Below the pieces are notes generated by a model. That model searched no databases, had not been told where the DNA came from, and was given only the letters and a program-made list of their open reading frames with translations. A DNA stretch of 64,000 bases from a virus (lineage: Duplodnaviria; Caudoviricetes): positions 96,001 through 160,000 of IMG/VR virus record IMGVR_UViG_3300048591_000242; one strand, 5' to 3'. The position numbers were made by a program, and so were the translations under genes. The first letter of the stretch is position 1, and every line of letters starts with the position of its first letter. Of this stretch, positions 4,398-48,883 are shown piece by piece.

Positions 4398-6863
4398 ATG
4401 TATATTAAAAGAATAATTCTTAAAGGTTTTAAGAATCTAGCACTATCTAACATAGAAGAGCTGGATTATTCCATAGAGATGCCCTTACAGTTAGTGTTAG
4501 GAAAGAACGGTTCTGGTAAATCCAGTTTATTAAGAGAGCTGTCTCCTTTTCCAGCTAACACTAGTAATTTCGATAAGGGCGGTTTTAAAGAAGTACATTT
4601 GGAGTATAACGGTAATACGTATCTTCTTAAAAGTGAAATCAGTAGATCTGGCAGACACTGGTTTATAAAGAATGAAAGCGAAAGATTGAATGACGGTGGT
4701 ACTGCTGCCGTTCAAAAGGAGCTAGTAGAAAGGGAGTTTAATATTACTCCTTTTATTTATAAGTTAATCACTGGTCAGCTTAGGTTCACAGACATGTCTC
4801 CTAGCGCCCGTAAAGATGCCTTAACGACGATTTCTAACCTTAAGCTAGACTATGCCTTGGGTTTATTTGAACGCCTCAGACAGGCCCACAGGGACACTCA
4901 GGGGGCTATCAAACATGTGGATAGTAAACTGGAGGGAGTAAACAGTCAGCTATTGGCTATAGGTGATCTAAATGCTCTACAAGAAGAACACCTAATTATT
5001 ACCGAAAGTATCCGTGAGCTAATACCGCTATCGGTAAACCAAAAGATAAATACCGCATATCTAGAACAGCAATTAAATAACGCATTAGATAACTTAGATT
5101 CGTATATAGTTGCACAGGGACACTGTCTAAATATAAATGATTCCAAGTATAGATCTACCATAGATGTAGAGAAAGCTATTTTAGAGATAGATAATAAACT
5201 CTATGCTGAAAAAACAAATATAGACGAGTTACTAAATAATCTATCTGAGCTTACCAAACTAACCGCTGTATTGGAAGATAATGAGGATGGAATTACTATA
5301 CTGGAAGATAGGGTAAAATATATAGACAGTGAGTTAGCTAAATTGCCTCCTGCCATATCCACTGTAGATTACGTTGTTAGTACGGATATAGTTCTAAATA
5401 AACTTACAGGGGTGTACGGTAGACTACAAGACCTATACGCCAACAAAGACATTGAAATGGTTTCATGTACTAGATTGGAGTATCAGGAGAGTAAATCAAA
5501 ACTGGAAGAAGCTAATACCGCTTTGGTTTACAATAAAGCTTATTTAGGTAGGCAGGAGAATATTCGATCTAAGGTGGAGTTAGCCAGACTAGAGGATAAG
5601 ACTTGTCCTAAGTGCGAGACAGTTATATTGGGTAGTGAGTCTATGTCGGATGAAGAGTACAGTGCACTTCTGGCTAAAATAGAGGAATTACGTGTAACTG
5701 TATCTGAGAGTGAGGCTAAACGAAATAAGATAGCTGAATTACATGACAGATATGAGCTATATGTACGTTACTTTAAATCAGTGCACTCCACTATTTATAG
5801 TGAGAATGAACTGCTTCCACTATGGAACTCTATGGGTGAAATTAAGTGGATCATAGATAATCTAAATGTAAGTTTAGATTTAATACGTAAAGAGATAAAC
5901 TCATTGAAGATTAAAATTCATAGAGACTCTCTTTTGTTAGACAAATCTAATATGGTATCTACTATAGATAACTTTAGATTAGCTGAATCCACTAATGCCT
6001 GCGCACGTAAAAAGTCTATAGAGTCTGCTCTAGATAAACGCTATGCTTCTTTGTCTACGTATAGGGAAAAGAAGAAACATCTAGAACAAGAACTATCTAG
6101 ATTCAGAGCATGCACTGTATTTCAAGAGACTTATCTTAAGCTGAAAGACGAACTTACTTTAGCCTGGTACAATTGGTGTAACGGTATGGCACATAGCCTT
6201 ATAGGAGATAAAATAGAGGAGTTTCAAAATAGATCCGGCGACATAAGAGCTATACTTAGTAAAAAGAATCATCTTTTAATCTCAGCTTATGAGTTAAAAG
6301 AAGATCATACTAGATTGGCAGAAGAGCTAGAAGCCTATAAAGAACTCTCCAGAGAGCTATCACCCACTACAGGCGTAATAGCTGAAATTATGCGTGAGTA
6401 TTTAGATAACTTTCTAGGGGAAATAAACAAAATTATAGGCTTCGTCTGGGAATATCCGCTATCCGTTAAATCCTGCGGCGTAGAAACAGTAGGTTTGGAT
6501 TATAAATTTCCTTTAGTAGTGTCTGACTTAGATACCCCTATAGACATATCTGAGGGTTCACAGGGACAAAAGGATATTATTAACTTTGCCTTTACTATAG
6601 TAGCTATGGCTTATATGGGGCTACAAGACTACCCTATATACATGGATGAAGTAGGTGCGTCTTTTGACCACAAGCATAGAGGTAATTTAATTAACTACAT
6701 AAAGACGCTGATAGAAAGTCGACAGTGTAGTCAGTTATTTATGGTAAATCACTATAGTAGCGACCATGGTGGATTATCTCACACAAACACGCTTGTACTC
6801 TCAGCAGATAACATCGTATTGCCTAGTAACTACAACGAGCACGTTAAAATAACATACAAGTAA
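4398..6863 (+). CDS. sbcC: SbcC/Rad50-like SMC ATPase
   Basis: Walker A GKNGSGKS, long coiled coil, CPKC zinc hook, Walker B IYMDE. Confidence 0.9.
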   Translation: MYIKRIILKGFKNLALSNIEELDYSIEMPLQLVLGKNGSGKSSLLRELSPFPANTSNFDKGGFKEVHLEYNGNTYLLKSEISRSGRHWFIKNESERLNDGGTAAVQKELVEREFNITPFIYKLITGQLRFTDMSPSARKDALTTISNLKLDYALGLFERLRQAHRDTQGAIKHVDSKLEGVNSQLLAIGDLNALQEEHLIITESIRELIPLSVNQKINTAYLEQQLNNALDNLDSYIVAQGHCLNINDSKYRSTIDVEKAILEIDNKLYAEKTNIDELLNNLSELTKLTAVLEDNEDGITILEDRVKYIDSELAKLPPAISTVDYVVSTDIVLNKLTGVYGRLQDLYANKDIEMVSCTRLEYQESKSKLEEANTALVYNKAYLGRQENIRSKVELARLEDKTCPKCETVILGSESMSDEEYSALLAKIEELRVTVSESEAKRNKIAELHDRYELYVRYFKSVHSTIYSENELLPLWNSMGEIKWIIDNLNVSLDLIRKEINSLKIKIHRDSLLLDKSNMVSTIDNFRLAESTNACARKKSIESALDKRYASLSTYREKKKHLEQELSRFRACTVFQETYLKLKDELTLAWYNWCNGMAHSLIGDKIEEFQNRSGDIRAILSKKNHLLISAYELKEDHTRLAEELEAYKELSRELSPTTGVIAEIMREYLDNFLGEINKIIGFVWEYPLSVKSCGVETVGLDYKFPLVVSDLDTPIDISEGSQGQKDIINFAFTIVAMAYMGLQDYPIYMDEVGASFDHKHRGNLINYIKTLIESRQCSQLFMVNHYSSDHGGLSHTNTLVLSADNIVLPSNYNEHVKITYK

Positions 6864-29403: not shown

Positions 29404-29715
29404 ATGGCTAGAAACTCAATTTCTATTTACGGCTGCGGTGGATTCGGCATCAACATCGTCCGTAACTTTGTGAATATTCCAGATGACCCGGAGCGGCAAC
29501 TGTATCCAAAAACAAGCATTCATGCCATTGACACCAGTGACAGTAATTTGGGCGCTTCACACAATGACATCAAGCACCATGTGGTGCCCGGAATCGACGG
29601 TGCCGGTAAAAACCGTAAACGTGCGTATGAAGCTACGCTGCCGCACATTGCTACAATACTTAACGATCATCGGCCGGGTATATTCAACGTCGTCATATTC
29701 TCAACATCAGGTGGT
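29404..29715 (+). CDS. phuZ: PhuZ phage tubulin, exon 1 (104 aa)
   Basis: GCGGFGINI, IDTSDSN, GAGKNR; ends FSTSGG in the tubulin signature loop. Confidence 0.9.
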
Positions 29716-29836
29716 AAAGTGATACATTAGTATCCATAGCCTGCTACAGCAGTGATGTTGTAGTAATCGTCTCCTAATTGCGGGAAACTCCTTCCTGTCC
29801 AATATTATGTTCACTAACATAACAAAGGTCAGGCAA

Positions 29837-30487
29837 ATGTCTAATTTTGAAACAAGAGTATGTTCGTATTGCAACAATGAGTATACGAATATTTATCGAG
29901 GACCACACGATGTGAAGGGATACACAATACCTACTTCATATTGTAGTAAATCATGCGCCGGAAAGGCGAAGGGTCCTATACTAGAAGATAGAGGTAAAGA
30001 AAACCTTAAGGCCGAAGCTTTGCAGTGCATTGAAGCGGCAGGTAGGTATCTCACTAAAGAAGAAATCTTAACTGAGGTTAAATGTTCTTCAAAAACACTT
30101 ACTAAACATGGTATTAAAATATCAGAACTAAATGCTGAATTAGGTTTCATTAAACCACGTTCAGTTTTTGAAGGTAAGGTGGGTAGGATACTTAAGGATA
30201 AATTTTCAAATGTAGAAAGTGAAAAAACATTTGAAGGTTTAACCGCACCAACAGGTTATCCCCTTAGGGTGGATTTTTATATACCCGAACTTAATCTAGT
30301 AGTTGAGGCCGACGGTTTACAACACTCCGATAAAAAACATCCATGGGCCACTCATCCCAATGGTACTGTCCGGGAATACGACGAAATCAAAAACAAATTC
30401 CTTCGTGATAATGAAATTGATCTTGTGCGTATTCCGTATAGTAAGAATGTTACTCCTGAAAGTGTTTTGGATAAATTAGATATTTGA
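29837..30487 (+). CDS. intron-encoded DUF559/Vsr-like (EDxHD-type) endonuclease
   Basis: FE..V..IL, LRVDFYIP..NLVVEADGLQH, YDEIKN..L..RIPY; N-terminal CxxC/CxxxC. Confidence 0.8.
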   Translation: MSNFETRVCSYCNNEYTNIYRGPHDVKGYTIPTSYCSKSCAGKAKGPILEDRGKENLKAEALQCIEAAGRYLTKEEILTEVKCSSKTLTKHGIKISELNAELGFIKPRSVFEGKVGRILKDKFSNVESEKTFEGLTAPTGYPLRVDFYIPELNLVVEADGLQHSDKKHPWATHPNGTVREYDEIKNKFLRDNEIDLVRIPYSKNVTPESVLDKLDI

Positions 30488-30709
30488 GAGCATTATATAC
30501 CAAGCTAATATCGAAAGATAAGTAGTGGCCTGACTAACTATCAGGGTATGGTAAAAATTATAATGATTGGACAATCCGCCGCGAAGCTTCTCTATGCTAA
30601 AGCAGTGAAGTGTGCTCAACGACTAACCCACTAACCAGGGTGTAGGGTACTAGTGTATCCGAAATGGAGACTGTCTTTAATCGACTAAAGTTTAATTATC
30701 AAAAATCTC

Positions 30710-31990
30710 GTGGGGGGATTTTTGATTCTGGAGGTGTTTATAGAAAAGTGGAAACTTGTAAAATTGGCACCAAATTATGAAATATCTAGCTGTGGAAAAG
30801 TTAGAAGAGTTAAAGATCACTACCATCTAAAAATTGGTATAGACAGATATGGTTATAATAAAATACATCTAATAAAAAATGATGGATCTAATTATTACAC
30901 AACCATACATCGTCTAGTGGCTATTGCTTTTGTAGATAATCCAAATAGATATACTCAAGTTAATCACAAGGATGGCAATAAAGCAAACAACCACTATACC
31001 AACCTGGAGTGGTGTGACGCAAAACACAACGTTATCCACTCGTATGTGAATGGATTAAACAACAACAGGCTACCCGTTATACTAAAAGATTTAAATACCG
31101 GCTATAAAAAATCTTTTATCTCAATAAAAGAAATGTGTAGATATTTAAATTTGAAACCAAATGTGGTTACTCCTTATATCAAAATATCCCACAAATACCC
31201 TTTTATGGGGAAATACGTAATTGAGGCCGATGAGACTGCTATAAAAGGTATATCTAATAGTAAATCACATGGTGTTGATTGTTATGTTTATGATCATGTC
31301 TCTTGCAAACTGACCAAATATCCAAGCATCAATATGGCTTCGTATTTTACAGGAATTAGAGGGCTATCTAATTTATCTAAATACAGTCCTATTAATGTTG
31401 CTGGATATACAGTAAGCAAAATAAGAGAAGAGTGCGTGTCTGATAAACACAAAATAAGTCTTACCTATGCATCTGAAAAGAGGGAAAAATATCACAGCGT
31501 TTCATACACCCAAAGATCAGACGAGGGATATGAGACATATGACTATTATACAGGAAAAACTGTATGGCACAAGGACAGAGACTGTGTTAGGGACTGGATA
31601 AACAAACACAGGGTCATATCCACCTTGCCCATAGAAAGCGATAACGTTAACGTAGCGGTATCTAGTTCTAAGAAAAATAGCAGAACATGTCTTCTTAGGG
31701 GCTATGGGGTAAGATCACTACTTCATGGTTTTGAATGGTTTCCTTATACGGAGGAAGTTATTTTATCAAACATGTATAATAGAAAATTCATTACTAAGTG
31801 TTTTAAGCTAAAAATGTGTGGCAAAACTGAAATAGTATTTGGCCTTCCGGCATTAGCTAAAATATTAAATGCGCCGCATGACATGCCTTTTAACAAAATG
31901 TCTGTTACGTATTTAAACTCGTTGCTAAACGCACCCCACGAAAGCGTAGAGCGACTTAATAACATAGTCGATTTAAAGATAAAGATATAG
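30710..31990 (+). CDS. intron-encoded NUMOD4/HNH homing endonuclease
   Basis: EKWK..NYEISSCGKV; IHRLVA.AF..VNHKDGNKANNH..NLEWC; stop codon overlaps intron P7. Confidence 0.9.
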   Translation: MGGFLILEVFIEKWKLVKLAPNYEISSCGKVRRVKDHYHLKIGIDRYGYNKIHLIKNDGSNYYTTIHRLVAIAFVDNPNRYTQVNHKDGNKANNHYTNLEWCDAKHNVIHSYVNGLNNNRLPVILKDLNTGYKKSFISIKEMCRYLNLKPNVVTPYIKISHKYPFMGKYVIEADETAIKGISNSKSHGVDCYVYDHVSCKLTKYPSINMASYFTGIRGLSNLSKYSPINVAGYTVSKIREECVSDKHKISLTYASEKREKYHSVSYTQRSDEGYETYDYYTGKTVWHKDRDCVRDWINKHRVISTLPIESDNVNVAVSSSKKNSRTCLLRGYGVRSLLHGFEWFPYTEEVILSNMYNRKFITKCFKLKMCGKTEIVFGLPALAKILNAPHDMPFNKMSVTYLNSLLNAPHESVERLNNIVDLKIKI

Positions 31991-32064
31991 TCTAGTCTGC
32001 ATGGAAACATGTAGCAGTTCATAAGAGAACGCGCACCATCTAACGAGTGGTGTGGAATATAACG

Positions 32065-32796
32065 AGTGGAAGTGTGTTGGGCCCGCTGATAGTAGCGGAG
32101 TTACTGCGTAGAGCTATCCCTGTCGTTGCGGTTATTGTGGGTTCCTCTGATTCCGCAAAAGAAGTAAACAACAGTCTAGATACGTTGTCTAGTTTACAGC
32201 AGATGTCGAACGGCGGCCATACTGGCGGTAGAGCTATTCCTATGGTTTATTTGGAAAATGCTCGCGCAGTGAAGGGTAATAAAGAAGACAAGATGGCGAG
32301 CCGCAGTGCTGTGGACAAGCAGGTTGAAGAAAATATTCGTCAACTGGCTTTACTGTTCTCTGGCATGCATCGTGAACTAGATAGAACTGATCTGGTAAAC
32401 TGGTTAGACCACAGTAAGGTTTCTCCTTCTATACCTGCCCAGTTACTGGAAGTCATTATTCACAAAGAAGACGACAGCAACATGCTGGAGGCTTATAGTG
32501 GTTTAGTGGTAGGGGTGGCTAGTTTATTGGCCAGTGAAGATGATCTTATTTCTGATCTAAATGCACCCTATGCCACTAAGGGGTATCTACAGGAAGAAGT
32601 TCTGGAATATGCTGATATTCCAAATCACACATACATTACTACAGCAGCTCGAGTACCAAAAATATTCGAGCGTTTTACCCAAGCTAAGCAGCTCCACCGA
32701 GATACCGTAGAGTCACTAAGCGGTATGGAAGTAGTAGGTGTTAATTCTGGATTTGGTACCTCCGGTATGTCCGGTGGAGACGGCATGGTAATTTAG
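32065..32796 (+). CDS. phuZ: PhuZ phage tubulin, exon 2 (243 aa)
   Basis: begins SGSVLGPL; LDRTDLVNW; C-terminal DGMVI tail; spliced product 347 aa. Confidence 0.9.
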   Translation, partial: SGSVLGPLIVAELLRRAIPVVAVIVGSSDSAKEVNNSLDTLSSLQQMSNGGHTGGRAIPMVYLENARAVKGNKEDKMASRSAVDKQVEENIRQLALLFSGMHRELDRTDLVNWLDHSKVSPSIPAQLLEVIIHKEDDSNMLEAYSGLVVGVASLLASEDDLISDLNAPYATKGYLQEEVLEYADIPNHTYITTAARVPKIFERFTQAKQLHRDTVESLSGMEVVGVNSGFGTSGMSGGDGMVI

Positions 32797-43946: not shown

Positions 43947-45860
43947 ATGGCTATTAAGAAAACAGGTGGAGAATCCGCAGAAGTGTCACAAGACAATGCT
44001 GGACCACAACAAGGATACACGTACCAACCACAATCTACAGGTGACGACCTGTTCTCTGGTATTGGTGTAGAGACTCTTTCTGGAGGCGTAGATACTGAAG
44101 GCTTCGCTGCGTTCAGTGCTGAGATGGAAAGACTATCTAAGTTACCTGAAGTACTCAGAACTATTAAGTTGAGTGTTATTCCGGTATCAAACCAACACCT
44201 TAGACTGCCGGTATTGGCCATGGCGGCTGAGTCTAAAGACGGGGTTGTGGTTTACAGCCTTCTTATTGAAGGCATGATGGGTCAGCCTTTGGAGCCTATT
44301 CGTGAAATCCGTCGTGATTTCGGTGGCCCACAGGGAGCTGAGATTATTATTGATCGTCCTACTAGTCGTTGCTATGACAACGGTTTGCGTAAGATCGTAG
44401 CGGCTGCGGTAGCTACGCAGTTAAATACCAGTGCTGAGCGTATCGTTCACCAGTCACATTGTGTTGTGCCACGTGGCGCTAACCTTAAGTGTGCTGAAAC
44501 CTGTCGCTCGTTCTTTGACAGCGCTAACCTAGCTCTGACAAACGCTGTAGCGCGCGATCGTATTGCCGGTGTTACCGTAGCTAACCTTACCAACCCAGCG
44601 GGTGTGGTAAATCAGCGTACTACTATTACACCTGGACAAAACAAGTTGAACAAAATCGGTTTGCCTATTGCGGCTGACTTTACAACCACTATTGAACTTG
44701 CTCGTAAGGCGCAAGAAAAGACCAGTTGGTCATCAGATATTCACGTTGCACAACAGCGTTACCATTTGGCAGAAGTAAGCGGTTACATTGATTTCTCAGT
44801 AGCTGGCCCAATTCCACCAAAACCAAACATGAATCCAATGCTGCCACAAACTGTACCTGGTTACATTCCTATGGTTGTAATTACAGAAATCGCTGGTTTG
44901 GCAAACAACGGTTCCTCTATTGAAGACATGCGCACGCAGTTACTGGGTATTGCTGCTACTACAGCGCTTACTGCAGATCACGGCTGGGTACGTGTATTTG
45001 AAAAGATGGCCGGTGCCAAATCCGTCAAGGCAGATATCGGTTTATTAGGTTTGGAACACGATCCGTATATCGGTCGTACACCAGAACTAGGTATGGTTAG
45101 CGTAGACAGCATTAGCTACGGTAAGCAGCCAAAAGAAGGCACAATGACTCCGAAGCAAGTAGCGGATTTGTGGTGTACTGATAAAGTAGCAGTAGCGCTG
45201 GATGTTGAACAGGGTGGCCGTTTGCACTGGATTCAGGATATCTTTGTAGCGGCCTCTGGTGTAGGTGATGAAACTGGTCGCCGTACCGCAGCTAACGAAC
45301 GTATCATTGCTGAGTGTGATGTTCTTACTAACGGTATTTTCTCACGTCTATGGACTGAGTTAAACGGTGGTCAGAAAGCACACGTGGTAGCTACTGAAAC
45401 TGTAGCAGTACATTTGGGTACGTATGATGGCGGTAAGAATGGCGGTCGCCGTGATCTTCGTTCTATCGACTATCTGACAATGCTAGGTCAAATGCCGAAA
45501 GATCTGGAAAAGCTAAGTGCAGCTACTGCCGCTACCATTCCTGGTGGCTGTAATGCTATTACACTTACTGATCGCAGAAACGCTATTGAAAACATTGTGG
45601 GCGATTGTGAATTCACCGGTATGGCTACACGCGTCTTCTTAACTGGTGGTTTCATCAATACTTTCGTACGTGCACTTATCCAGGCAGGTGTTACTTTCCG
45701 TTCTGACGATTTGTTAGGTTACGGTCAGTCTAGCCAGCGTGTGGTAATGAACTACAACTTGGCCGGTACTGCTTCTGAAGGTTTATATCAGACAGCATAT
45801 CAGCAGGGTTCAGTACCAGGCATCCCAGGCGGTGCTGGGTATATTAACCCATTGTTCTAG
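43947..45860 (+). CDS. chmA: chimallin, phage nuclear shell protein
   Basis: 637 aa directly upstream of the nvRNAP beta-prime-N gene; EVSGYIDF motif; disordered termini; strong codon bias. Confidence 0.8.
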   Translation: MAIKKTGGESAEVSQDNAGPQQGYTYQPQSTGDDLFSGIGVETLSGGVDTEGFAAFSAEMERLSKLPEVLRTIKLSVIPVSNQHLRLPVLAMAAESKDGVVVYSLLIEGMMGQPLEPIREIRRDFGGPQGAEIIIDRPTSRCYDNGLRKIVAAAVATQLNTSAERIVHQSHCVVPRGANLKCAETCRSFFDSANLALTNAVARDRIAGVTVANLTNPAGVVNQRTTITPGQNKLNKIGLPIAADFTTTIELARKAQEKTSWSSDIHVAQQRYHLAEVSGYIDFSVAGPIPPKPNMNPMLPQTVPGYIPMVVITEIAGLANNGSSIEDMRTQLLGIAATTALTADHGWVRVFEKMAGAKSVKADIGLLGLEHDPYIGRTPELGMVSVDSISYGKQPKEGTMTPKQVADLWCTDKVAVALDVEQGGRLHWIQDIFVAASGVGDETGRRTAANERIIAECDVLTNGIFSRLWTELNGGQKAHVVATETVAVHLGTYDGGKNGGRRDLRSIDYLTMLGQMPKDLEKLSAATAATIPGGCNAITLTDRRNAIENIVGDCEFTGMATRVFLTGGFINTFVRALIQAGVTFRSDDLLGYGQSSQRVVMNYNLAGTASEGLYQTAYQQGSVPGIPGGAGYINPLF

Positions 45861-45871
45861 TAGTTAAACTC

Positions 45872-45899
45872 CAGGGTACTCCTTAATTGGGGTACCCTG
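45872..45899 (+). terminator. hairpin after chmA
   Basis: 11-bp stem CAGGGTACTCC/GGGGTACCCTG. Confidence 0.6.
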
Positions 45900-45934
45900 A
45901 CTTATTACACTAAAAATTTTACTAGGAAATAAGA

Positions 45935-47161
45935 ATGAGTAAAAACATCCGCGTACTGGATCACGATGAACATTTTAGAAGTTTAAATTTTCCACCGATT
46001 ATTCTAAACGATATACCGGCCAGAACTAAGGAGGAGAGAGAAGCACTAAATAACATCATAATGACCACGTACGACAACACAGATACTTTAGAGTCAGTAC
46101 CTAGCTGTGCGTGTGGGGCTCTGTCGTATGGGCATAACTTAGGGGCCATGTGTAGTAGCTGTGGTACCAGAGTAGAAACCCCTACAGACAGAAAAATAGA
46201 GGCTACCGTATGGATACGTTCTCCAGAAGGTATAGTTTCTTTAGTAAACCCAGTATTGTGGTTGGTGTTAGGGAAGATCTTAACAAAATCACACTACAAC
46301 GTTCTGTATTGGTTTTGTAACCCATATGCTGAAGATCCCCCACATAACAACAAGGCTGCTATTCAGTTAATACGCAGATTTTTAAACTCTGGCATACCTC
46401 GAGGATTAAATTCCTTTATAGTGAACTTCGATCAGTTAGTACCTATCTTTCTGGCCGCAGTACCACTAGCTTCTAACCGACCACATCTGGAATCTTTTAT
46501 TTCAGAAAATAAAGACAAGTTCTTTCCACAGCACCTACCAGTACCGTCTAAGGTAGCGTTTGTTCTGGAGAAAACTAGTACTGGCTCTTATGCCGATATT
46601 AACATAAGAGACCCTATTAACGCATGTCTTACTGTAACTTCACTGGACTCTGGTACCTTAAGTAACGTTAAGAGACTAGAAAGCAGAATGTCTTCTGTTA
46701 TCAATGATTTATCGAACTATTACAAACATATGTTTGGTGATCCGTTCTCAGCTAAGGCCGGTCTTCTTAGAAAGACTGTATTTGGCAGTAGGATGGGTTA
46801 TAGTTTTCGATGCGTTATAACCAGTGCTCACGGGGTACACGACTATGAGCAAATAAAGATACCTTATTCTCAAGCGGTAACTCTACTTAAGGCACACCTT
46901 CTAAACAAGCTACACAAGTTGGAGTATAACGAGAGAGATGCTAAGGCTTATATAGCCCAGCATACCAAGGAGAGAGATCCTCTGCTTCTTAGGCTCTTAT
47001 ATGAGCTTATAGCAGAAGCACCAGGGGGTAAAGGTATACGTTGTCTCTGGATTCGGTACCCTACTTTAACGAGGGGCAGTATACAGTCGCTTCATATCTC
47101 GGATATCTCCGAGATGTCAGCTAGTCTTAGTATATTGGCCCTAAACGGCGCTACGGCTGAT
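45935..47161 (+). CDS. nvRNAP beta-prime N-terminal subunit (phiKZ gp55-like), exon 1
   Basis: zinc ribbon CACG..CSSC, K.GLLRKTVFGSR, RYPTL; ends LNGATAD. Confidence 0.9.
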
Positions 47162-48673
47162 GAAGCGGCTTAACTAACGATACTTGAACAATTGTGTTTG
47201 CTAATGTACATTAATGCTCTATGTGTTCTTTAAATTAAATAAATATCATGGTGAGGATAAATGTATGTTAGTTGAAATTAAAGGTTTTCCTGGGTTCTAT
47301 AGGGCTGTTGGTACAACAAACCTGGCCGTAAATAAAAATGGAATCATTCTAGATTTAGTTACCCGTAAATACAAACTCACCGACGTTGCATCGGATGGGT
47401 ACATCACCACAAATGATGGCGGAGTAACTAGGAACGTTCATCGCATTATGGGTGATACATTCCTAAAACGTCCTAGCGGGAAGGGGACGTACATAATCAA
47501 CCATAAGGACGGAGATAAAACTAATCCTAGGTTAGATAATTTAGAATGGGTTACATATAGCGGTAACATAGAACATGCCTACGCTAATGGTCTAAGAACA
47601 GACAACACTCCGGTTGAAGTTTATAACTTGAAAACGGATGAAATTATAAAATTTATTAGTATACAGCAGTGTGCTAAGTATTTTAAACGTAACCATAACG
47701 CTATAGTTAAGTATCTTAAAAGCAAGCGTAATGCACCGTTTATGTTGTCGTACAGCATTAGAAAGGTAGGGGAAGGTTGGCCACCTCTTACCAAGAATGA
47801 TATTGGTAAAGTGGTAAATGGGGCACCCGTTAGCATAATAGCGGTTAATGTAAGTACCGGTGAAAAAATAATTTTCAGTGGTGCTAAAGCGGCGTCAGAA
47901 TATCTGGGTCTAAAGAAATCTGGAATAGGTGGTAACTTACGTGGCACACATGGCGATAAGCCGTACCACGGTTATAGATTTTACCATCTTAACACCTATA
48001 ATCTTGAGTCTACAGATAACGCAATTGATGTGCGTGATCCTCAATCAACTAAATCTAAAGGAAAACCACCTAGACAAAAGCCCAAAATGGTTAGTGCATT
48101 TAATCATGATACCGGTATTGAGGATGTGTTTAACTCCATGCGCGTATTTGCTGAGTCTGTAGGGACAACCTATGATGCAATAGCTAGATCGGTATGGAAA
48201 AACGCTGGTAGGTGGAAAAACTACACAATCAAGTATATAGGTTAAGCCGATAGTCCTCTAGGCTAGTAATGGTCTAGTAGTTTCTCTCTAATTGCTGGAA
48301 CCCACTAAAGATTCACCCACTACAACGTAACTGGAAACGGTAAGCGTGAAGGTATCGAAAGATAGAAAAAAGTGGTGAGTATGGAATATGACGATAGTAA
48401 GTCTAAGTTCTATAGACAATGTGGGAATCAGCAGCGAAGTTCCTAAGCTACTCTACCTTGGTAGAGGTGTATGGAATGTGCTCAACGATCAACCGGTAGC
48501 TCGGTGTAGGGTGGCAAGCGATGTAACAATCAGGCCATTCGAAATGGGAGGGGGCCTTTCATGTTTGTGTGAAAGGTTCATGATATGATCTAATATCCAT
48601 CTGTAATGGATGGGAAGTTCGCTACTTCGGTAGTGAGAACTGTATGGGTGTCGCGGCCCATATGAATGCAATG
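47162..48673 (+). mobile_element. group I intron in the nvRNAP catalytic motif
   Basis: GAU 5' junction, terminal G; CGGCTTAAC/GTTAAGCCG P1 stem around the HNH ORF; AATTGCTGGAA, AATCAGCAG, P7 GATCA/TGATC; P9 hairpins. Confidence 0.9.
47265..48245 (+). CDS. intron-encoded HNH homing endonuclease
   Basis: VHRIMG.TF..INHKDGDKTNPRLDNLEWV..SGN; NUMOD1-like repeats; GAGG SD before ATG 47265. Confidence 0.9.
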   Translation: MLVEIKGFPGFYRAVGTTNLAVNKNGIILDLVTRKYKLTDVASDGYITTNDGGVTRNVHRIMGDTFLKRPSGKGTYIINHKDGDKTNPRLDNLEWVTYSGNIEHAYANGLRTDNTPVEVYNLKTDEIIKFISIQQCAKYFKRNHNAIVKYLKSKRNAPFMLSYSIRKVGEGWPPLTKNDIGKVVNGAPVSIIAVNVSTGEKIIFSGAKAASEYLGLKKSGIGGNLRGTHGDKPYHGYRFYHLNTYNLESTDNAIDVRDPQSTKSKGKPPRQKPKMVSAFNHDTGIEDVFNSMRVFAESVGTTYDAIARSVWKNAGRWKNYTIKYIG

Positions 48674-48883
48674 TACGATGGTGATGTTCTCAGTGGCTGT
48701 ATAGCCCTTAGTAGGAAGCAATATGATGACTTTGAGTACTTCAGACCACACTACGGTATTCATTCCTTTGTTAAGTTAGGTGAGCTAAATGGAAACTGCA
48801 GTTTACCAGAAACCGACATCGGTGTGATTAACTCGTGGTTTGAGTATGAAGAAGATGAGTTAGGTATTGTAGCTGAACGATAG
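48674..48883 (+). CDS. nvRNAP beta-prime N-terminal subunit, exon 2
   Basis: begins YDGDVL, completing the DxDGD triad; spliced product 478 aa. Confidence 0.9.
   Translation, partial: YDGDVLSGCIALSRKQYDDFEYFRPHYGIHSFVKLGELNGNCSLPETDIGVINSWFEYEEDELGIVAER

Follow-up and report, generated by a model that had tools for sequence, protein, structure and literature searches.

We found that the gene for the phage tubulin PhuZ is split in two in a 64,000-nucleotide (nt) stretch of a Caudoviricetes genome (the window; bases 96001-160000 of the 202,179-bp IMG/VR virus record IMGVR_UViG_3300048591_000242, which has direct terminal repeats). We consider it highly probable that the interruption is a mobile, self-splicing, IA2-like group I intron, whose insertion point separates the second Gly codon from the Ser codon in the SGG/SGS stretch of the PhuZ signature (here and below, a slash within a peptide or exon sequence marks the junction). 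The boundaries of the split are defined by alignment, the core is conserved and covaries among alleles, the insertion carries genes of two endonuclease families, and introns recur at the same site in divergent phages. From this conservation we infer splicing, the activity and target of the endonucleases, and homing. The spindle that PhuZ forms is what centres the phage nucleus and makes it rotate.

Two exons of one PhuZ tubulin

The list of open reading frames (ORFs) gives one ORF of 108 amino acids (aa) at 29404-29730 and one of 249 aa at 32047-32796, with two ORFs in other frames in between. An earlier reading made from the letters alone (the sequence-only reading) had proposed that the two outer fragments rejoin into a 347-aa PhuZ, and our searches bear this out. 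In a tblastn search of 50,697 GenBank phage records, genes annotated 'tubulin PhuZ' were matched in 93 records by exon 1 (query 29404-29715) and in 127 records by exon 2 (query 32065-32793). In uninterrupted PhuZ genes the two matches abut to the base, for example in Erwinia phage Ea35-70 (171606-171908 and 171909-172469) and in RAY (172080-172382 and 172383-172943). Joined, the exons encode 347 aa, and a MAFFT alignment of this protein with seven full-length relatives shows no gap at the junction; the window protein reads FSTSGG/SGSVLGPL there, and the relatives FS(A/G)SGGSGSV(I/L)GPL. The closest full-length relatives in a set of 5.8 billion proteins (P0002-P0005) are 337-349 aa long; P0002-P0004 share 49-51% identity with the joined protein over about 340 aa, and P0009 shares 36%.

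Exon 1 carries the GTP-binding loops GCGGFG and GAGKNR, and exon 2 a TubZ_C_2 domain (a weak profile match of 18 bits, below the cutoff of 27) and the C-terminal tail ...GDGMVI. Aligned with its relatives, the joined protein retains the N-terminal G-box, the GAGK loop, the signature motif and the tail, and full-length homology in these elements places it in the PhuZ family. Sequence comparison thereby confirms that the two exons are the halves of one PhuZ tubulin. Exon 2 as a query for related loci in IMG/VR found nothing, exon 1 alone matched only itself in the 5.8-billion-protein set, and megablast of the whole locus against GenBank phages gave no match.

Read without splicing, the frame of exon 1 ends at a stop that lies 4 codons past the 5' splice site, and the product would be the truncated 108-aa protein that the earlier reading had also described. 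Such an in-frame stop lies within six codons of the 5' splice site in all four intron-bearing loci fetched, and the joined coding sequences (CDSs) are intact in each of them (333-347 aa).

Splice sites

At the 5' splice site, U29715 forms a wobble pair with G29739 in P1, whose inner hairpin pairs GAUAC with GUAUC at 29721-29734. The guide UCCAU (29733-29737) can pair with GUGGA of exon 2 (32066-32070) as P10, and the last nucleotide of the intron is G32064. The P1 U-G pair, the P10 pairing and the terminal G named by the sequence-only reading are all present, with an exon-guide helix of only 3 bp. A U at -1 in a U-G wobble and a terminal G occur in all four intron-bearing loci, and the GGU with GCC pairing of P1 is invariant in the four alleles. 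The same loci share 12 identical nucleotides around the insertion site (GGTGGT/AGTGGA), including synonymous positions; the intron-less alleles read GGCGGC/AGCGGG, GGTGGC/TCTGGC and GGTGGC/AGTGGA, with C at -1 in all three. To judge from sequence, the shared exon ends are the signature of ribozyme constraints on the exons (U at -1 for P1, GUGG for P10).

The same intron could instead be spliced at U29712, in the first GGU, leaving a PhuZ that is one Gly shorter (FSTSG/SGSV). In the window, and only there, CAGGU (29708-29712) can pair with GCCUG (29739-29743) over 5 bp, compared with 3 bp in the 29715 register. The other alleles do not preserve this pairing, however (4/5 in L009; 3 plus mismatches in L066 and L005), and there is no G 3 nt upstream of G32064 that would compensate for a slipped 5' site. 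The second GGT is invariant in the four intron-bearing loci, while the next intron bases differ, the intron-less alleles have two Gly codons at the junction, and SGGSGS is found in 7 of 7 full-length relatives. We therefore regard the U29712 site as highly improbable and, in agreement with the sequence-only reading, prefer the in-frame junction 29715/32065, the sole one that keeps U at -1, the terminal G and the two-Gly signature of intron-less alleles.

The ribozyme core and whether it still splices

We read the helices (Table 1) on an E-INS-i alignment of four intron alleles. The window contains a conserved P3-P4-P6-P7-P8 core with the P3/P7 pseudoknot and J8/7, and the group I elements listed from the letters alone (P1, P2, P3, P4, P7, P8 and P9) could all be located. 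In E-value mode, the Rfam model RF00028 matched the 3' part only (31794-32014; 36.1 bits, E 6e-7), the J8/7-P7-P9 segment fitting almost perfectly. In the orthologous insertion of L009, the same model scored 103.3 bits (E 4e-26), and its match includes the P7.1/P7.2 insert typical of subgroup IA2.

Double-sided compensatory changes were found in 43 of 120 pairs among the four alleles, a count that includes P5a-c helices absent from the window and, coming from only four or five related sequences, does not represent independent events. RNAalifold reported compensatory changes in 8 of 24 pairs for the P4'-P3' segment and in 8 of 19 for P9-P9.2. P7.1 pairs CC with GG in the window and GG with CC in the other alleles, and a fifth allele (the X1 contig) shows further compensatory changes in P6, P7.1 and P7.2. 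Such a pattern is what a conserved ribozyme would be expected to give, and it supports the view that phuZ is interrupted by a genuine group I intron.

Several observations weigh against the reading as a self-splicing intron, besides the small number of alleles behind the covariation. No run on record as RNA contains the intron sequence. At the gathering threshold, Rfam gave no match in the whole window, the 36 bits of the intron lying below the 50 bits set for RF00028; the low score is explained by the two ORFs (0.68 and 1.28 kb), which divide the core into three. In P1, the exon part has just 3 bp, and GGUGGU permits a slipped register. One pair of P4 is mismatched, and P5 is ambiguous (UCC with GGA by homology, or GUCCAA with UUGGAC), its P5a-c extension having been replaced by ORF1.

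The lack of RNA evidence for splicing and the score below the Rfam threshold would also fit an insertion that no longer splices: an intron and endonuclease cassette in decay would have made phuZ a pseudogene, and the phage would live without PhuZ. Two large ORF insertions and a rearranged P5 could impair folding. Some chimalliviruses do lack PhuZ, as is stated for Erwinia phage Asesino (PMC11724907, cited in PMC12908238). Both exons are nevertheless full length, with the PhuZ motifs and the C-terminal tail intact, and the core helices, J8/7 and the guanosine site in P7 are conserved and canonical. Moreover, the exon ends keep U at -1 and the P10 bases, and four other alleles show the same arrangement with intact CDSs. 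We consider a broken phuZ very improbable and continue with a self-splicing intron as the preferred interpretation.

Other explanations of the interruption were rejected: an intein, given the in-frame stops and the presence of ORF1 and ORF2 as separate genes inside the RNA core, and two introns in tandem around a mini-exon, as well as a twintron, since the junction lacks no residues and there is only one ribozyme core. Matches to RAGATH-34 (30643-30762; E 0.26, 27.6 bits where the gathering score is 60.7) and mir-8517, which fall on P7.2-P8 and ORF1, were dismissed as chance overlaps.

Table 1 Features of the interrupted phuZ locus, in window coordinates
Feature	Position	Strand	Basis and remarks
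phuZ exon 1	29404..29715	+	104 codons, ending ...TCA GGT GGT; tblastn to PhuZ and alignment
Group I intron	29716..32064	+	2349 nt, IA2-like, has P7.1/P7.2
P1	29713..29741	+	exon GGU 29713-29715 with guide GCC 29739-29741; read from sequence
P2 hairpin	29742-51 / 29756-65	+	10/10 canonical pairs; compensatory changes among alleles
P3	29769-74 / 30666-71	+	6/6 canonical; 3' strand GGAGAC
P4	29779-84 / 30575-80	+	5/6 canonical
P5	29789-91 / 30569-71 by homology; alternative 6-bp 29797-29802 / 30567-72	+	ambiguous
ORF1	29807..30487	+	226 aa, in P5 extension; PHROG matches, structure model
Central core	30567..30680	+	P5' and P4' at 30569-30580 through P8 5' strand
P6	30581-90 / 30607-15	+	8/8 canonical
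P7	30621-25 (GACUA) / 31988-92 (UAGUC)	+	5/5 canonical
P7.1	30627-30640	+	
P7.2	30645-50 / 30655-60	+	6/6 canonical
P8	30672-80 / 31973-81	+	9/9 canonical
ORF2	30710..31990	+	up to 426 aa, in P8 loop; Pfam, PHROG 59, PDB 1u3e
3' core	31973..32064	+	P8', J8/7 AAGAUA, P7', P9-P9.2, terminal G32064; RF00028 alignment
P9	31997-32003 / 32008-14	+	7/7 canonical
P9.1	32017-20 / 32027-30	+	4/4 canonical
P9.2	32032-39 / 32047-54	+	8/8 canonical
phuZ exon 2	32065..32796	+	243 codons plus stop; starts AGT GGA AGT GTG = SGSV

Two predicted endonuclease genes in two loops

By homology, one intron here holds two unrelated endonuclease genes, in the P5 and P8 loops. The predicted ORF1 protein consists of a 4-Cys zinc ribbon, a helical DNA-binding region and a nuclease domain of the Vsr/EDxHD fold. 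At E 5e-20 to 2e-7, it matches PHROG 559, 9084 and 7140, which carry annotations as homing or intron-encoded nucleases, and its homologues comprise 3253 representatives; Pfam gave no match above threshold (DUF559 marginal, E 0.023). In an alignment of 32 homologues, the four Cys, D156, E167, G170, H173 and K195 show complete or almost complete conservation, and D169 is conserved in at least 90%. Searching the PDB with Foldseek, using an AlphaFold model of high confidence (pLDDT 90), returned weak matches only; VIA-align resolved the Vsr-like domain, superposing residues 119-226 on I-Bth0305I (3r3p, Z 9.2), Vsr (1cw0, Z 9.1) and a DUF559 protein (3hrl, Z 9.0). The modelled Vsr-type fold and the conserved acidic and His residues point to an EDxHD/Vsr-like homing endonuclease. 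The nearest described counterpart, I-Bth0305I (PDB 3R3P), is an EDxHD/Vsr-like enzyme from a Bacillus phage recA intron. ORF1 resembles it over residues 119-226 (rmsd 2.9 A, 90/98 residues) and in the conservation of D156, E167, D169 and H173, but the identity is 17%, the N-terminal 4-Cys zinc ribbon of ORF1 is different, and its nuclease role is a prediction.

ORF1 plus about 80 nt sits in place of the P5a-c extension of ORF-less relatives. A stem of 11 positions, one of them mismatched (29802-29812 with 30488-30498), closes the cassette, brings its two ends together and contains the ATG of ORF1. By analogy with other intron endonuclease genes, the stem may sequester the start codon.

ORF2 has NUMOD4, HNH_3 and NUMOD1 domains (Pfam) followed by a long C-terminal region, and matches PHROG 59 (E 4e-37). 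A further match is I-HmuI, the nickase of the SPO1 intron (1u3e; E 1.4e-14), and the alignment includes HKDGNK.NN..NL.W. The HNH motif and the NUMOD domains suggest that it encodes a homing endonuclease of the I-HmuI type. Residues 13-158 align with I-HmuI, which is encoded in the SPO1 DNA polymerase intron (PDB 1U3E), and the HNH motif residues are kept; ORF2 differs in its length of 426 aa, with an extra C-terminal region of ~270 aa that is common to the ORF of the L005 intron. Its stop codon lies inside J8/7-P7. The true start is uncertain, with candidates at TTG 30722, GTG 30734 and ATA 30740 and homology to I-HmuI beginning at ~30743.

Just 5' of the HNH ORF, we observed a hairpin of 11-12 bp with a GUGG loop (30697-30725), whose counterpart in L005 lies at about 5143-5170. 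It is kept in these two alleles with compensatory changes, and the GTG start of ORF2 in the ORF list falls within the loop. Translational control by this hairpin is possible.

Alleles, mobility and the wider intron family

The same intron occupies the same spot in phuZ in at least four other metagenomic phages. At the identical codon boundary, L009 has a 450-nt ORF-less insertion, L066/L067 a 383-nt ORF-less intron, and L005-L008 a 1261-nt intron with one ORF. The ORF of L005 shares the N- and C-terminal regions of ORF2 but is without the HNH core, and from this comparison is taken to be a degenerate copy of the HNH endonuclease gene. Short PhuZ 'fragments' in the protein search (P0006-P0008) are exon 2 calls of other split genes; among protein clusters related to exon 2, 4 of 11 are intron-bearing and 7 are not. 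A fifth allele, the 2104-nt X1 contig from an aquaculture-metagenome run, aligns to window 29521-32118. Identity is about 92% over 29736-31179, a part that comprises the 5' core, ORF1 and the beginning of ORF2; a stretch of 652 nt within ORF2 is deleted, and exon 1 has diverged.

These alleles also bear on whether the split arose in silico. Since the record is a metagenome assembly, unrelated DNA could have been joined inside phuZ as an artefact or chimera. The insertion nevertheless lies at the same codon in independent assemblies from other samples (L005-L008, L009 and L066/L067), and the X1 contig, from a different run, has the same intron with both ORF1 and ORF2, so the two-ORF form is not an assembly oddity. 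The chance of an artefact is practically negligible, and we treat the split gene as real.

Between alleles, the intron core is 70-85% identical, compared with 49-69% for the exon DNA, and the core of the window is 74-77% identical to its orthologues. The window and L005 have the most distant exons (49%), yet their cores (77%) are more alike than those of the window and L009 (74%). That the core is more alike than the exons hints at horizontal spread of the intron; stronger constraint on the ribozyme could also produce this difference. Intact, degenerate and absent endonuclease genes, together with intron-less alleles, appear to show stages of a homing cycle.

Beyond phuZ, the core motif CTCCTAATTGCGGGAAA was found in 54 metagenome loci and in one relevant IMG/VR locus (L010); a further match (L011), in a GC-rich phage, was discarded as chance. 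PhuZ is encoded by none of these 54 loci, nor by L010, which indicates that the intron family lives widely in other genes. Matches of the intron in GenBank (blastn) fall in genes for the large terminase, ribonucleotide reductase and RNA polymerase. In uncultured phages, we also observed two introns of this family about 490 nt apart in one gene (L010 9607-10445, minus strand, 91.8 and 86.7 bits; L012 7221-7729). A related core also falls between 'hypothetical' ORFs of Vibrio phage vB_pir03 (MT811961.1, 39069-39243), where nothing is annotated, beside a gene for the RNA polymerase beta subunit; this cultured jumbo phage probably has an intron missing from its annotation.

Genome context

A chimallin homologue lies at window 43947-45860 (PF25677; 32 bits, cutoff 27, E 2e-9); phiKZ chimallin as a protein query had no match in the genome, but the Pfam profile did. 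After it come a 412-aa RNA-polymerase-like ORF (45935-47173; no Pfam match), an HNH endonuclease ORF (47214-48245) and a second group I core (48233-48611; RF00028, 41 bits), and the gene order of 43947-48700 is that of phiKZ gp54, gp55 and gp56. Upstream of phuZ is a DUF7484 gene that is syntenic in relatives. Given the chimallin homologue, the phiKZ-like order and the DUF7484 synteny, the host, an uncultured marine jumbo phage, is very probably nucleus-forming. The genome has at least two RF00028 matches besides the phuZ intron. The third group I intron, which is ORF-less, lies outside the window (genome C1:62545-62805, L001 1501-1761; RF00028, 76 bits).

Proposed mechanism and significance

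In the mechanism we propose, the primary transcript would fold into the P1-P9.2 ribozyme, exogenous guanosine would attack after U29715, and the freed exon 1 would then attack after G32064, guided by P10. The ligated mRNA would encode the 347-aa PhuZ, and unspliced RNA only the 108-aa fragment. The products of ORF1 and ORF2 would presumably cut or nick the intron-less phuZ of co-infecting relatives, and the intron would spread via recombinational repair of the cut gene.

More speculatively, the intron may be more than a passive parasite, a suggestion that we put forward by analogy and consider rather unlikely. Its endonucleases might serve as interference weapons that cut or nick the intron-less phuZ of rival chimalliviruses and so cripple nucleus positioning and capsid delivery, in the manner of PhiPA3 gp210. 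In addition or instead, splicing might gate PhuZ, as the need for it inside the ribosome-free phage nucleus could set the timing or amount of the protein. If interference occurs, the higher identity of core than exons between distant hosts would reflect repeated invasion across lineages, driven by competition.

The sequence-only reading knew of no precedent for an intron in a phage tubulin, and literature and GenBank checks are consistent with this. We found no report of one in full-text literature, reviews or the PhiPA3 intron paper, a search whose coverage leaves most subscription journals outside, so that absence is not proof. Nor did we find an earlier report of an intron in any cytoskeletal gene of a phage or other prokaryotic virus. 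When GenBank phages were searched for a split phuZ by tblastn with a full-length relative, each of 190 records matched in a single place, and the best 120 listed do so in one piece spanning the junction. Elements of this kind are well known, and what is new is their presence in phuZ. That mobile introns settle in the functional motifs with the highest conservation is an established rule; with the tubulin GTP-binding signature as insertion site, it now covers a new class of host genes. The collection of alleles (intron-less, ORF-less, with one degenerate endonuclease gene, and with two endonuclease genes) provides natural material for studies of homing and of possible endonuclease-mediated competition among nucleus-forming phages. 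In addition, gene callers break this PhuZ into two 'hypothetical' fragments, so surveys of PhuZ presence or absence in metagenomic chimalliviruses under-count it.

Comparison with known introns

The closest known parallels are the IA2 introns of T4 td, nrdB and nrdD (sunY). Like them, the phuZ intron is built on an IA2 core in which P7.1/P7.2 lie between P7 and P3', and it shares the J8/7-P7 sequence AAGAUAUAGUC with them. P1 is short in both, endonuclease coding sequence is looped out from a helix at the periphery, and an in-frame stop soon follows the 5' splice site; the 3' core of the phuZ intron gives blastn matches in T4-like phages. The phuZ intron differs in its host gene, which encodes a cytoskeletal GTPase rather than an enzyme of nucleotide metabolism, and in having two endonuclease ORFs in two loops, of HNH and Vsr-like rather than GIY-YIG type.

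Among nucleus-forming phages, the parallel is the intron in the RNA polymerase gene of phiKZ and PhiPA3 with its HNH endonuclease, PhiPA3 gp210 (Birkholz et al. 2024, PMC11620839). In both cases a group I intron with a nicking-type HNH endonuclease, predicted as such for the phuZ intron, sits in an essential chimallivirus gene, and the layout of that system also recurs beside the chimallin gene of the present genome (window 43947-48700). The target here, by contrast, is phuZ.

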